From a virus (lineage: Duplodnaviria > Heunggongvirae > Uroviricota > Caudoviricetes): 4,213 bases of DNA. This document shows positions 1,003 through 3,835 of the stretch, piece after piece. Made by a program: the position numbers and the translations under genes. The notes beneath the pieces were generated by a model that had not been told where the DNA came from, searched no databases, and saw only the letters and a list, made by a program, of their open reading frames with translations. The stretch is from the IMG/VR virus record IMGVR_UViG_2529292882_000010, one strand, 5' to 3'. Position 1 is the stretch's first letter. Each line of letters begins with the position of its first letter.

Positions 1003-1105
1003 GTTCTTACGCCTCGGGCTGGCTACTTAACCCCTGACCACTACCTGGTAACTCGAAGTATTGCCCGGCATTCTGTGGGGTGGAGTGGGTTGGTATGAAA
1101 GGAAG

Positions 1106-1154
1106 GATACCCATGGGTATCTAAAAAGTAAATACCCATGGGTAATTTTTTTTT
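1106..1154. promoter_or_regulatory. candidate OL-type operator pair: two copies of palindrome TACCCATGGGTA, then a T9 tract
   Basis: Seen in sequence: perfect 16-bp palindrome GATACCCATGGGTATC at 1106-1121 (core 1108-1119) and a second TACCCATGGGTA core at 1133-1144, centres 25 bp apart, followed by T9 at 1146-1154. Same TACC/GGTA half-sites as the three sites in the divergent region at 1630-1680. Inference: repressor binding sites. The second palindrome plus T-run could also act as a weak intrinsic terminator on the + strand. Confidence 0.55.
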
Positions 1155-1189: not shown

Positions 1190-1609
1190 TTATGATGCGT
1201 TTTGTGCTTTCTTTTTACGGATTTCTTCGTAGATCATATTGTAATACTGTTTTTTCTCTTCAAGAGTTTTTAATAAGTTATCCGCTTCACTTTCTGGCAG
1301 TTCGTCTAAGAGATCTAAAAAAATACGTTGTCGTGGCGTTAGAACCCTTGTTTCATAATTGGAGGCTGTGTTCGTTGATGATGAAACGATACCATCCATC
1401 CATCCTCGGGGTAACCCAAAGGACTCTTCGATAATCTCCACCATATCATCAGCGATCCGTTTTTTTCCCTTTTTCCCCTCTGGGTACAACATTCTTGATA
1501 CATAAGAAGGCTCGCGACCGATTTTTCTGGCTACGTTAACCGCTTTACCATCGCATTTCTCATCACGAATTTTGATGAGTTGCTGTCGTCTAAATTCATA
1601 TTTGTCCAT
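1190..1609 (-). CDS. prophage immunity repressor, short Cro/CI-type HTH protein without S24 peptidase domain (RacR-like by position)
   Basis: Seen in sequence: 139-aa ORF divergent from a cro-like gene across a 100-bp operator-bearing intergenic region. The N-terminal segment KAVNVARKIGREPSYVSRMLY fits a helix-turn-helix, and the C-terminal region is charged and coiled-coil-like. At 139 aa it is too short to carry a LexA/CI-type autocleavage domain. No Shine-Dalgarno upstream of the ATG. Confidence 0.8.
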   Translation of the reverse strand: MDKYEFRRQQLIKIRDEKCDGKAVNVARKIGREPSYVSRMLYPEGKKGKKRIADDMVEIIEESFGLPRGWMDGIVSSSTNTASNYETRVLTPRQRIFLDLLDELPESEADNLLKTLEEKKQYYNMIYEEIRKKKAQNAS

Positions 1610-1615
1610 AGGTAA

Positions 1616-1685
1616 ATAATAGATGCGATTACCGCAAGGTAAACAACCTGCAGGTATTGACTTTTGTTTACCTGTGGGTATTCTT
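1616..1685. promoter_or_regulatory. divergent OR-type control region: three TACC-N4-GGTA operators with candidate pR and pRM
   Basis: Seen in sequence: TACCGCAAGGTA (1630-1641), AACCTGCAGGTA (1645-1656, with perfect inner palindrome ACCTGCAGGT) and TACCTGTGGGTA (1669-1680). Rightward candidate promoter: -35 TTGACT (1657-1662), -10 TATTCT (1679-1684), overlapped by the third operator. Leftward candidate promoter on the - strand: -10 TATTAT (complement of 1616-1621), -35 TTTACC (complement of 1638-1643), overlapped by the first operator. Promoter calls are inference from consensus matching only. Confidence 0.55.
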
Positions 1686-1709: not shown

Positions 1710-1991
1710 ATGGAAGAATTAAGAATATTTCTCAATTCTCTTTCGTCAGATGAACAGCGTATGTTTGCATGCGAGTGTGGTACCAGCATCGGTTATCTAA
1801 GAAAGGCATTGAGTAAAGGTCAGGTGTTAGGGGCATCGTTATGTGTCCTTATTGAGCGAGCCAGTAATGGTGAAGTTACACGTCAGCAACTAAGGCCTTT
1901 TGATTGGATGAATATTTGGCCCGAGCTGGAAGATACCAAAACGTTAACACAACCACTTTCTAGGAGCTTGATTCATGAAAATCAAGCATGA
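1710..1991 (+). CDS. ydaS: Cro-like HTH protein (YdaS-like)
   Basis: Seen in sequence: 93-aa ORF, ATG at 1710 with AAGGAG (1699-1704) at 5 nt spacing, first gene rightward from the operator region. Contains the HTH-like segment GTSIGYLRKALSKG and the motif VTRQQLRPFDW, which I recall as typical of YdaS/Cro-like prophage proteins. Overlaps the next gene by 17 bp. Symbol assigned by family resemblance and gene order, not by verified identity. Confidence 0.7.
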   Translation: MEELRIFLNSLSSDEQRMFACECGTSIGYLRKALSKGQVLGASLCVLIERASNGEVTRQQLRPFDWMNIWPELEDTKTLTQPLSRSLIHENQA

Positions 1992-2400
1992 ACACATCCG
2001 CATGGCGATGAGTGCCTGGGCGCATCCGGACGGTGAAAAAGTTCCGGCAGCTGAAATAACCCGGGCTTATTTTGAGCTGGGTATGACATTCCCGGAACTG
2101 TATGACGACAGCTATCCGGAAGCCCTAGCTCGCAATACTCAGAAAATTTTCCGCTGGGTAGAGAAAGACACTCCTGATGCGGTTAAAAAAATTCAGGCAC
2201 TGTTACCAGCGATCGAAAAAGCAATGCCACCTCTGCTGGTGGCCCGAATGCGCAGTCACAGTTCAGCCTATTTTCGGGAGCTGGTGGCGACGCGGGAACG
2301 ATTGGTGAGAGACGCTGATGATTTTGTCGCAGTGGCGATCGCTGGTTTCAACCAGATGAATCGTGGTGGTCCGGCGGGAAATGCCGTGGTGATGCACTAA
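1975..2400 (+). CDS. ydaT: YdaT-like protein (proposed CII-like regulator family of Rac-type prophages)
   Basis: Seen in sequence: 141-aa ORF, ATG at 1975 with AGGAG (1962-1966) at 8 nt spacing, overlapping the cro-like gene. The N-terminus MKIKHEHI and the length match my recollection of the YdaT family, and the racR-ydaS-ydaT-like order supports it. From memory only; needs a homology search. Confidence 0.7.
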   Translation: MKIKHEHIRMAMSAWAHPDGEKVPAAEITRAYFELGMTFPELYDDSYPEALARNTQKIFRWVEKDTPDAVKKIQALLPAIEKAMPPLLVARMRSHSSAYFRELVATRERLVRDADDFVAVAIAGFNQMNRGGPAGNAVVMH

Positions 2401-2423: not shown

Positions 2424-3371
2424 ATGAGCAGCAAGCTTCATGGTCTTGTCTGGGAAGGGTGTGCCTTCACCGGCATGATCTTATCCAGGGTGGCAGTAAT
2501 GGCTCGCCTTGCAGATTACAGCAATGACGAAGGTGTGTCATGGCCTGCAGTGGAGACCATTCGTCGTCAGATTGGGGCAAAGAGTGAATCAACGGTTAAA
2601 GCTGCGATAGCGGAACTGGAAAAGAACGGCTGGCTGACGAAGGAGGAACGTAAGGTCGGTGGGCGTAATGAAAGCAATATCTACCGTCTTAATGTGGAAA
2701 AACTCGAAGCAGCAGCAGCGGCGGCGCGTGAGGCATATAAACCGAAAAGAAAAATTAGCCAGGCAAAAAATGACCCGTCAAATATTGCCCCCTCAACGGT
2801 TGACCCCTCAAATTTTGATGGATCAACCATTGATAAAAAACAGCCGGATAGGGGGGCGATGGTTGGCCCCGATCCGTCAGTATTAAAACCTGATCCGTCA
2901 GATAAAAGATCTTTTCGTCCGGAAGCTTCGCAACCGGACTCGCAGACGGCTGAACAGGATTTTTTAACCCGACACCCTGACGCTGTTGTGTTCAGTGCGA
3001 AAAAACGCCAGTGGGGTAGCCAGGAAGATTTAGCGTGTGCGCAGTGGATCTGGGGACGAATCGTGAGTCTTTACGAACAGGCTGCCAGCGATGATGGCGA
3101 GATCACGCGACCGAAAGCCCCCAACTGGACCGCATGGGCTAATGACGTGCGCACAATGCGGATGCTGGATGGCAGAACTCACAGACAAATTTGCGAAATG
3201 TTTGGTCGGGTACAGCGGGATCCATTCTGGGTAAAAAACGTCATGAGTCCGTCAAAGCTTCGTGAAAAATGGGATGAGCTGGTTATTCGTCTGGGGCGTT
3301 CGCCTGTACAGCGTTGCGTGAATCACATTTCTGAACCGGATACCGAAATTCCGCCGGGCTTCAGGGGGTAA
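2424..3371 (+). CDS. phage replication initiation protein (N-terminal winged-helix DNA-binding domain, repeat-bearing linker, conserved Trp-rich C-terminal domain)
   Basis: Seen in sequence: 315-aa ORF, ATG at 2424 with GGAG at 6 nt spacing. The N-terminal region (LADYSNDEGVSWPAVETIRRQIGAKSESTVKAAIAELEKNGWL) matches the pattern of HTH-type replication initiator N-domains. The central linker carries four DPS repeats encoded by direct DNA repeats. The C-terminal region is Trp-rich and resembles the conserved C-terminal domain seen on phage replisome-organiser proteins. Domain names are from memory. Confidence 0.8.
   Translation: MSSKLHGLVWEGCAFTGMILSRVAVMARLADYSNDEGVSWPAVETIRRQIGAKSESTVKAAIAELEKNGWLTKEERKVGGRNESNIYRLNVEKLEAAAAAAREAYKPKRKISQAKNDPSNIAPSTVDPSNFDGSTIDKKQPDRGAMVGPDPSVLKPDPSDKRSFRPEASQPDSQTAEQDFLTRHPDAVVFSAKKRQWGSQEDLACAQWIWGRIVSLYEQAASDDGEITRPKAPNWTAWANDVRTMRMLDGRTHRQICEMFGRVQRDPFWVKNVMSPSKLREKWDELVIRLGRSPVQRCVNHISEPDTEIPPGFRG
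2771..2915 (+). repeat. iteron array inside the initiator gene: candidate phage origin of replication
   Basis: Seen in sequence: four direct repeats of TGAYCCNTCA at 2771-2780, 2801-2810, 2870-2879 (CGATCCGTCA) and 2891-2900, with a degenerate copy near 2818-2828. Spacings are about 30, 70 and 20 bp. Followed by the AT-rich palindrome AAAAGATCTTTT (2904-2915). Four GATC sites fall within about 90 bp (2821, 2871, 2892, 2908). Established parallel: the lambda origin lies inside gene O as iterons plus an AT-rich segment. Confidence 0.6.
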
Positions 3372-3409: not shown

Positions 3410-3835
3410 TTGTGGCAAAAGTATTTACACAAGAAGAGCGGGAAAAAAATTAAGGGGCAGATTGTTGAACTTGTACGTCTGAGCGGTCGCGAGACGTTAC
3501 GGCAACTGGAAGCGAAAACAGGTGCGACAAGATATCTGATGAGTGTTCTCGCCAGAGAGCTGGTTGCCAGTGGCGATGTATACAATTCTGGCTACGGGTT
3601 ATTTCCGTCTGAACAGGCTCGTAAGGACTGGCAAAACGCCCGCAAAAAACTATCGAGGGCAAAGGCGAAGAAACCGGTTGTGGTTGATCCGGACCTTATC
3701 TGGTCATTACCAGACGGAGAAATACGCCGCTACGACAGGAGCCAGAACATAATCTGTCGCGAGTGCCGGAAGAGTGAGGTTATGCAGCGAGTGCTGGCGT
3801 TTTATCAGGGTAATTTTCAGGAGGTGATGGCGTGA
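3410..3835 (+). CDS. hypothetical phage protein (141 aa) with a predicted winged-helix-like N-terminal segment
   Basis: Seen in sequence: the only open frame here. It must start at TTG 3410, because there is no in-frame ATG or GTG before residue 44 and the N-terminal segment (IVELVRLSGRETLRQLEAKTGATRYLMSVLARELV) looks like a real HTH or winged-helix fold. The basic middle and C-terminal CxxC are noted. The stop TGA overlaps the next start as GTGA. Family not recognised. Confidence 0.65.
   Translation: MWQKYLHKKSGKKIKGQIVELVRLSGRETLRQLEAKTGATRYLMSVLARELVASGDVYNSGYGLFPSEQARKDWQNARKKLSRAKAKKPVVVDPDLIWSLPDGEIRRYDRSQNIICRECRKSEVMQRVLAFYQGNFQEVMA
3809..3824 (+). promoter_or_regulatory. copy 2 of repeated RBS-containing junction module GGTAATTTTCAGGAGG
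   Basis: Seen in sequence: identical 16-mer at the 3' end of CDS 3410..3835, where it encodes GNFQE. AGGAGG (3819-3824) lies 7 nt upstream of the GTG start at 3832. Confidence 0.65.

Follow-up and report, generated by a model that had tools for sequence, protein, structure and literature searches.

Background

The repressor gene cI of phage lambda is transcribed from PRM as a leaderless mRNA, with +1 at the A of the AUG, and the direct recognition of a 5'-terminal AUG is the mechanism established for its translation. In the lambda genome (NC_001416) this promoter reads TAGATA-17-TAGATT-TAACGT-ATG.

Leaderless mRNAs of this kind have also been mapped in prophages. The mRNA of PaaR2, encoded in the cryptic prophage CP-933P of E. 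coli O157:H7, was found to be leaderless using 5' RACE, N-terminal sequencing and mass spectrometry (PMC8630535). In the Rac prophage of E. coli K-12, primer extension and mutagenesis of the -10 element showed that the racR promoter PracR3 gives a leaderless transcript and is the strongest promoter (PMC9638921); the racR sequence reads GAATAT-TAAGCA-ATG, with the same 6-nt spacing as in the DNA analysed here. The cI mRNA of PY54 begins with AUG, as determined by RACE (PMC4488713), and in Gifsy-3 the gfhR promoter sits between two in-frame AUGs (PMC3121763). In CP-933P the leftward promoter PRE is activated by YdaT (PMC8630535), whose footprinted operator, TTGATT-N6-AATCAA, is located at the ydaS/ydaT junction (PMC9986795).

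The window and its genes

The window, i.e. the whole 4.2-kb stretch of DNA that was analysed, covers the immunity and early-replication genes of a lambdoid E. coli prophage that resembles Rac and CP-933P. Among complete E. coli genomes, 822 carry its 1-kb core with an identity of 97-99%; one strain with this prophage is E. coli C5 (NZ_CP010122, 98.8% identical). It encodes the following genes.

1190..1609, minus strand: repressor gene, 139 aa, MDKYEF... (ORF listing; PHROG 5736 match; RefSeq WP_000362152.1)
1710..1991, plus strand: Cro-like gene of the YdaS type (Pfam YdaS_toxin below cutoff; PHROG 35; PDB Cro matches)
1975..2400, plus strand: ydaT, the CII-equivalent gene (Pfam YdaT_toxin; PHROG 163 'CII-like'; PDB 3C4R and 8BT1)
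2424-3371: gene for an HTH_36 replication-type protein (family searches)
Last two genes: a DUF977 gene and a DUF4406 gene (family searches)

The YdaS-type Cro matches Pfam YdaS_toxin at 9e-6 (25.8 bits, under the curated cutoff of 30) and the Cro proteins 8c7k and 8co2 in the PDB at 1e-10. The YdaT of the window scores 40.4 bits with Pfam YdaT_toxin (cutoff 21), and its PDB matches are 3C4R (~93% identity, 1e-87) and the CP-933P YdaT 8BT1 (6e-79). The layout is of the Rac/CP-933P type, i.e. a YdaS-type Cro and a YdaT-type CII are divergent from the repressor and a YdaT operator is located at their junction. An Rfam scan of the whole window (E <= 1) returned only spurious miRNA-model matches on the palindromic OL operators, so that no structured RNA or leader of a known kind is present.

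The assignment of the ORF at 1190-1609 as the repressor is supported by the identity of its N-domain, its AlphaFold model, the fold matches of that model and the clustered palindromes around the gene. The protein is the same as RefSeq WP_000362152.1, with an identical start, which is labelled 'hypothetical protein', and it matches PHROG 5736 'transcriptional regulator' at 4.7e-70. Over its first ~75-86 amino acids it shares 65-85% identity with the N-domain of the 221-242-aa S24/LexA-family repressors, including the cI of phage mEp043, and these relatives carry PF00717. The window protein itself falls outside the self-cleaving S24 class: it has 139 aa, a Pfam search with it gave no match and no S24 peptidase domain, and the AF2 (AlphaFold) model (pLDDT 83) consists of an HTH N-domain, a disordered linker at residues 76-86 and a helical hairpin as the C-domain. 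This short helical C-domain is common to the CI of phage Tritos.

A Foldseek search with the model matched HTH_XRE regulators, the best one being the Rep of Salmonella phage SPC32H (5d50) with a marginal E-value of 1.5e-3, which does not establish control by an antirepressor. The PDB search by sequence gave nothing significant. A homology to RacR was considered and dropped, the two proteins having no similarity (E = 2.3).

The promoter and the predicted start of the repressor mRNA

The minus strand upstream of the repressor reads ...GGTAATCGCATCTATTATTTACCT, then ATGGACAAATATGAA. The 16 nt before the ATG, CATCTATTATTTACCT, are A/U-rich. We identified the following features around the start of the gene.

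1609..1607, minus strand: ATG start codon, the invariant Met of MDKYE, with no other in-frame start
1610..1615, minus strand: discriminator TTACCT, 6 nt, between the -10 hexamer and the ATG (read from the sequence; same length as the TAACGT of lambda)
1616..1621, minus strand: PRM-type -10 hexamer TATTAT, 5/6 to TATAAT (consensus scan; conserved in the family at the same offset)
1638..1643, minus strand: PRM-type -35 hexamer TTTACC, 4/6, with a 16-bp spacer, embedded in the putative operator O3 (consensus scan)
1657..1684, plus strand: PR-type promoter TTGACT-16-TATTCT, which drives ydaS/ydaT (consensus scan)

On the evidence of the sequence the start codon of the repressor is secure. Upstream of 1609 the frame holds no ATG, GTG or TTG as far as the stop at 1687; downstream, the first candidate is codon 40, which already belongs to the conserved helix-turn-helix; and M1, K3, Y4, E5, R7 and R8 are invariant among the homologues. 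Alternative start codons were ruled out on the first two of these grounds.

The consensus scan of 1000-2500 found only two promoter-like sites, which lie back to back: the minus strand has TTTACC-16-TATTAT (1643..1616) and the plus strand TTGACT-16-TATTCT. No other promoter-like site was found by the scan on the minus strand in 1600-2500, and an extended -10 is absent at the repressor promoter. A -10 hexamer occupies -12 to -7, so that with a gap of 6 nt the predicted +1 is on the A of the ATG. The initial annotation had proposed that TATTAT is placed for a start at or next to this A, as in lambda PRM, and our analysis agrees with it: the hexamer (1621..1616) is separated by exactly 6 nt (TTACCT) from A1609, and the spacing between the -10 and the ATG is identical in lambda (6 nt).

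The repressor gene does not have a Shine-Dalgarno (SD) sequence, unlike the rightward genes of the window. This had been noticed in the initial annotation, and we could put figures on it by calculating the anti-SD duplex energy of positions -20..-1 against the 3' end of the 16S rRNA. The repressor gives +1.9 kcal/mol, whereas the eight other window genes range from -5.7 to -11.6 kcal/mol, i.e. -8.6 for ydaS (AAGGAG), -6.5 for ydaT (TAGGAG), -6.1 for the gene at 2424 (GGAG), -10.3 for the DUF977 gene, -11.6 for the DUF4406 gene and -5.7 to -5.9 for three further ORFs. All the rightward genes are preceded by AGGAG or GGAG sites; that of the Cro-like gene, AAGGAG at 1699-1704, is carried by the ~20-nt leader which follows the PR-type promoter. 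The putative leaderless mRNA is predicted to be unpaired over its first 20 nt.

Judged by the window sequence alone, the TATTAT hexamer could be a chance occurrence (P about 0.12), as a -10-like hexamer is found 5-7 nt from the ATG in 12% of the shuffles of these AT-rich 24 nt. A full promoter match at 9/12 in the correct position is less frequent: the scan would give ~2 such matches in 800 bp when both strands are counted, from which we estimated ~0.4% for the three offsets. The hairpin TGCGGTAATCGCA (1636..1624), flagged as terminator-like, lies in the PRM spacer and consists of an O3 half-site plus 5 bp; it is not conserved as a hairpin in relatives, and was treated as a chance feature.

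Conservation across the repressor family

The comparative data are decisive, and across the aligned loci they put the geometry of the -10 and the ATG well beyond chance. We scanned one genome per species and found 48 loci that encode the N-domain of the repressor, 46 of which have the conserved MDKYE-type start. Their hosts are Enterobacterales, Aeromonas, Neisseria, Burkholderiales, Nitrosomonadales and Xanthomonadales, covering Gamma- and Betaproteobacteria. The 46 loci were collapsed to 29 clusters at <70% identity over -24..-1. When aligned on the ATG, most of the loci read TCAATACC-N4-GG..TTTACC-N4-GGTAA, followed by ~8 nt, a -10-like hexamer, 5-7 nt and the ATG, while the bases between the promoter and operator elements vary freely.

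The best match to a -10 PWM within -30..-1 is located 6 nt from the ATG in 11 clusters and 7 nt in another 7, i.e. in 18/29 clusters. A strict -10, defined as having A2, T6 and at least 4/6 matches at 5-7 nt from the ATG, is present in 15/29 clusters, compared with 2.75 +/- 1.5 in 5000 shuffles (maximum 10), and the mean PWM score over the 29 clusters is 3.7 versus -0.8 +/- 0.5 in the shuffles. In 36/46 loci and 24/29 clusters the hexamer is preceded, at a distance of 16-18 bp, by a TTTAC(C/T) -35. In about one third of the clusters, mostly from high-GC Betaproteobacteria and Xanthomonadales, the hexamer lacks the A at position 2 (TGAAAT, TTGAAT, TGCAAT), and the promoter call is weaker there. 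A pyrimidine at -1 with a purine at +1 is seen at the predicted start in only 29/46 loci, and this feature is not informative.

SD pairing is mostly absent in the family, with a median energy between -1.7 and -2.4 kcal/mol, and SD-like sequences were seen in a few relatives (AAGGGGGG in locus L036 and GGAGG at -18 in locus L006). The arrangement does not depend on the C-terminal half, being the same in repressors with an S24 peptidase and in those with the short helical domain. The cI of mEp043, a viable phage with a repressor of the S24 type, has TTTACC-16-TAGAAT-TAAATC-ATG. The CI of Tritos, which has an unrelated N-domain with the same C-domain, has TATCAT-7 nt-ATG and no SD. We found no direct transcription start data or promoter mapping for this repressor family or for the mEp043 cI in the literature.

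We conclude that the maintenance transcript of the repressor is quite likely to be leaderless. This reading, which the initial annotation offered as a parallel to lambda PRM, is supported by the geometry, the lack of an SD, the AUG, the unpaired 5' end, the conserved spacing and the mapped precedents. In a lysogen, the repressor would be transcribed from the weak sigma-70 PRM-type promoter TTTACC-16-TATTAT, and RNA polymerase would start on the A of the AUG or at most one base away from it (predicted +1 = A1609), because the -10 ends 6 nt before the ATG. The resulting mRNA would have neither a 5' UTR nor an SD, and may be translated via direct recognition of its 5'-terminal AUG. That translation of the repressor might be weak and sensitive to the state of the ribosome, as had also been put forward, would be an extrapolation from lambda cI.

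Operators and the switch

The predicted promoter is interleaved with putative operators. We searched the window for the pattern TACC-N4-GGTA with at most 1 mismatch and found 7 matches versus 0.93 expected. Five of these palindromes are located at the two ends of the repressor gene, three at 1630, 1645 and 1669 and two at 1108 and 1133. The three on the promoter side are conserved in relatives.

1630..1641: putative operator O3, TACCGCAAGGTA, centre at about -26.5 from A1609, over the PRM -35 and spacer
1645..1656: putative operator O2, AACCTGCAGGTA, centre at about -41.5 from A1609, abutting the PR -35
1669..1680: putative operator O1, TACCTGTGGGTA, lying over the spacer and the -10 of PR

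The position of O3 over the -35 and spacer suggests negative autoregulation by the repressor. O2 near -41.5 is at the position of a class-II activator, like OR2 of lambda, which suggests self-activation of PRM. Repression through O3 and activation through O2 would thus be exerted by the repressor on its own promoter, with O1 and O2 lying over or next to the divergent PR. The layout as a whole is that of a lambda-like switch, i.e. back-to-back promoters for the repressor and the cro gene overlapped by three palindromic operators, and it is kept in the relatives. A candidate for a fourth operator, TACCTATGGACA in the region 1603-1614 over the start, was rejected: only one half-site matches, and it is not conserved in the relatives.

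The YdaT operator and a second transcript

The repressor may be transcribed by a second route as well. The window has one match, with 0 mismatches, to the operator of YdaT.

1968..1985: perfect YdaT operator TTGATTCATGAAAATCAA, OM type, at the ydaS/ydaT junction

Since this perfect operator adjoins a YdaT that closely matches the one of CP-933P, we predict that the repressor is probably also transcribed, during the establishment of lysogeny, from a YdaT-activated leftward PRE-type promoter with a start more than 360 nt upstream. YdaT bound at 1968-1985 would turn on this promoter, and the long-leadered transcript would carry the same AUG at an internal position, still without an SD, which raises the question of how an internal AUG of this kind gets translated. 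Such an upstream start would coexist with the leaderless PRM transcript, and therefore would not refute the leaderless reading. As RacR has three promoters, several repressor starts may coexist here too.

Alternative explanations

The start codon and the exact start of the transcript both bear on whether the mRNA is leaderless. Leaderless initiation needs AUG, and ATG is used by 46/46 loci of the family. A wrong annotated start, with the real start codon and a normal ribosome-binding site located elsewhere, could be suspected from the extensions such as MLAMDKYE and MVNDVKIAPMDKYE that gene callers give to many homologues. However these N-terminal extensions are variable while M1, K3, Y4 and E5 are not, 21/46 loci have no upstream in-frame start, and in the window nothing in frame is available between 1687 and 1609 or, downstream, before codon 40 in the HTH; we regard this alternative as highly improbable. 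A start that is heterogeneous or lies a few bases upstream of the ATG would give a leader of 1-5 nt in place of a true 5'-terminal AUG. The gap between the hexamer and the ATG is 7 nt in about half of the relatives (6 in the window), where the modal +1 would then be one base before the A, and the choice of start sites in E. coli varies by 1-2 nt. Yet the window and lambda, whose transcript has the A of the AUG as its +1, share a gap of exactly 6 nt, and a purine start after a pyrimidine is favoured (T1610, A1609), so a short leader appears improbable. It would also hardly alter the biological conclusion, as mRNAs with leaders of 1-3 nt behave as functionally leaderless.

A rival reading, in which leadered transcripts are the main source of the repressor and ribosomes initiate independently of an SD at an internal AUG (e.g. 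S1-assisted on an A/U-rich stretch), TATTAT not being the main promoter, is in our view rather unlikely. The starts in that case could be at the YdaT-activated PRE-type promoter near 1990-2060 or at others in the operator region. PRE-type promoters are silent without CII or YdaT and therefore cannot maintain lysogeny. The perfect operator at 1968-1985 and the A/U-rich 16 nt upstream of the ATG fit leadered transcripts, as do the close match of the window YdaT to that of CP-933P, a PRE activator (PMC8630535, PMC9986795), the additional upstream promoters at RacR (PMC9638921) and the production of GfhR* from an upstream promoter upon induction (PMC3121763). But the spacing of the -35, the -10 and the ATG is kept in 24-29 independent lineages, which would be unexplained if the hexamer were no promoter, and the minus strand offers no other promoter-like site in 1600-2500. 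The leadered and the leaderless routes are also not exclusive, and we retain the leaderless transcript from TTTACC-16-TATTAT as the predicted source of the repressor in the lysogen.

Implications

A leaderless repressor mRNA at this locus would be nothing out of the ordinary and would not surprise a specialist, as experiments on several related prophages have revealed the same arrangement there. The prediction adds a widespread family to the prophage repressors that are apparently expressed from leaderless mRNAs: more than 800 complete genomes of E. coli encode the repressor in the exact form of the window, and the distribution of its N-terminal domain extends to the Betaproteobacteria. The prediction also favours the view that leaderless expression of the maintenance repressor belongs to the design of lambdoid switches in general and has been selected.

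It is possible, and we advance it tentatively, that the DNA-binding domain, the TACC-N4-GGTA operators and the promoter firing at the AUG form one compact immunity cassette, which has stayed intact in Enterobacterales, Neisseria, Burkholderiales and Xanthomonadales and through swaps of the induction-sensing C-domain. If so, leaderlessness would be under selection as part of the design of the switch and not an accident of lambda. The gain could be to hold the operator, the promoter and the start codon within ~35 bp, or alternatively a low repressor level that depends on the state of the ribosome. The AUG of the PRE-type transcript, having no SD, would then have to use a non-canonical internal initiation.

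There is also a practical side for annotation. Gene callers often misplace the start of these repressor genes, and spurious extensions are found at the N-terminus of many homologues. As the spacing between the promoter and the ATG is conserved, it offers a simple rule for annotating the correct start.

Comparison with known systems

The locus resembles lambda in its divergent PRM and PR around three operators, its weak -35, the order -10, 6 nt, ATG with no usable SD, and the placement of one operator over PRM and of another centred near -42. It differs from lambda in several components. The window repressor has no detectable similarity to cI and, with 139 aa, lacks the S24 self-cleavage domain. 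Its operators are 12 bp long with centres 15 and 24 bp apart, whereas the 17-bp sites of lambda are 23-24 bp apart, and proteins of the YdaS and YdaT types stand in place of Cro and CII.

CP-933P has the same gene order, i.e. a repressor, the divergent ydaS-ydaT and then replication genes, together with a close YdaT and the operator TTGATT-N6-AATCAA at the ydaS/ydaT junction. Its PaaR2 is set apart from the window repressor by the N-terminus, MQKKE... versus MDKYE... (PMC8630535), and the operators of PaaR2 are repeats of the GTTTAGTAA type, unlike the TACC-N4-GGTA of the window. In addition, paaR2 is co-transcribed with the toxin-antitoxin pair paaA2-parE2, which is absent in the window. The Rac prophage likewise has its repressor divergent from ydaS-ydaT, but at racR two further promoters lie upstream, and the leadered forms have an AGGAG before the ATG, neither of which is found in the window. 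The window protein has no similarity to RacR and is not a homologue of it, and from PaaR2 it differs in the N-terminus, the part that was compared (MDKYE against MQKKE). PY54 is an unrelated type of phage, with a linear plasmid prophage (telomere phage), and its cro is leaderless too, whereas the cro of the window has a ~20-nt leader with an AAGGAG SD.

The window protein, with its short helical C-domain, would represent a new protein family in an already known arrangement, the arrangement itself not being new. The cI of mEp043 and the other MDKYE repressors of the S24 type are longer, with 221-242 aa and a C-terminal S24 LexA-like peptidase in place of that domain. They share with it the DNA-binding domain, the operators and the promoter TTTACC-16-(-10)-6 nt-ATG.

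Repressor architecture and induction

The window repressor is built as a domain mosaic. S24-type cI proteins such as that of mEp043 share its N-domain, and the C-terminal helical module is found in the CI protein of phage Tritos, but there with a different N-domain.

Residues 88-139 of the repressor (gene 1190-1609, minus strand): C-terminal helical module LTPRQRIFLDLLDELPESEADNLLKTLEEKKQYYNMIYEE, also noted at 2720-3139 of L002, a locus of the comparative scan with the same repressor N-domain

Because the repressor has no S24 domain, its induction is probably not through RecA-stimulated self-cleavage. By analogy, induction through an antirepressor could be possible, in the manner of the Gifsy/SPC32H phages.

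We found that the gene calls for many E. coli copies of the repressor (homologues P0007-P0019 and P0097) have their N-terminus, MNLDDSNSSKFVMRNAMV..., out of frame, and that the normal repressor frame resumes at KKRIADDMVEIIE. Judged from these sequences, they are frameshifted copies with the helix-turn-helix destroyed, presumably the decayed repressors of cryptic prophages.

Other features of the window

At the left edge (1-40), in a region without a convincing ORF, there is an inverted repeat, GGTTGTCA...TGACAACC, for which the Rfam scan of the window gave no match.

The DUF977 gene is frameshifted at 3412-3453 relative to its intact counterpart in E. coli B4103-1 (WP_001594978.1, VAKVFTQEEREKIKGQ...). 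The A-run at 3443-3449 is A7 in the window versus A6 in that strain, and hence the GTG-3412 frame stops at 3451, and the TTG-3410 ORF supplies the reading frame for the remainder of the protein. Gene decay, a sequencing error or homopolymer slippage may each account for this.

Regulatory sites

Shortly past the repressor stop codon we observed a region that looks like an OL/PL region (1104-1144), with a leftward promoter-like sequence placed between and over two palindromes.

1108-1119 and 1133-1144: two copies of the perfect palindrome TACCCATGGGTA
1132..1104, minus strand: promoter-like TTTACT-17-TATCCT, leftward

Between them, the two palindromes make up a 16-bp hairpin with a T-rich tract after it, flagged as terminator-like by the consensus scan, and this hairpin could have a second role as terminator of the repressor transcript.

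A further site overlaps the ydaT start codon.

1968-1985: perfect predicted YdaT operator TTGATTCATGAAAATCAA

Since this operator is accompanied by a YdaT ~93% identical to PDB 3C4R, a YdaT-activated leftward PRE-type promoter is predicted, like the one in CP-933P (PMC9986795).

The predicted repressor operators (1630-1680) are spaced, centre to centre, by 15 bp between O3 and O2, ~1.4 helical turns, which places these two on nearly opposite faces, and by 24 bp between O2 and O1. This arrangement is unusual and is kept in the related loci L004-L048. The corresponding spacings in lambda are 23 and 24 bp.
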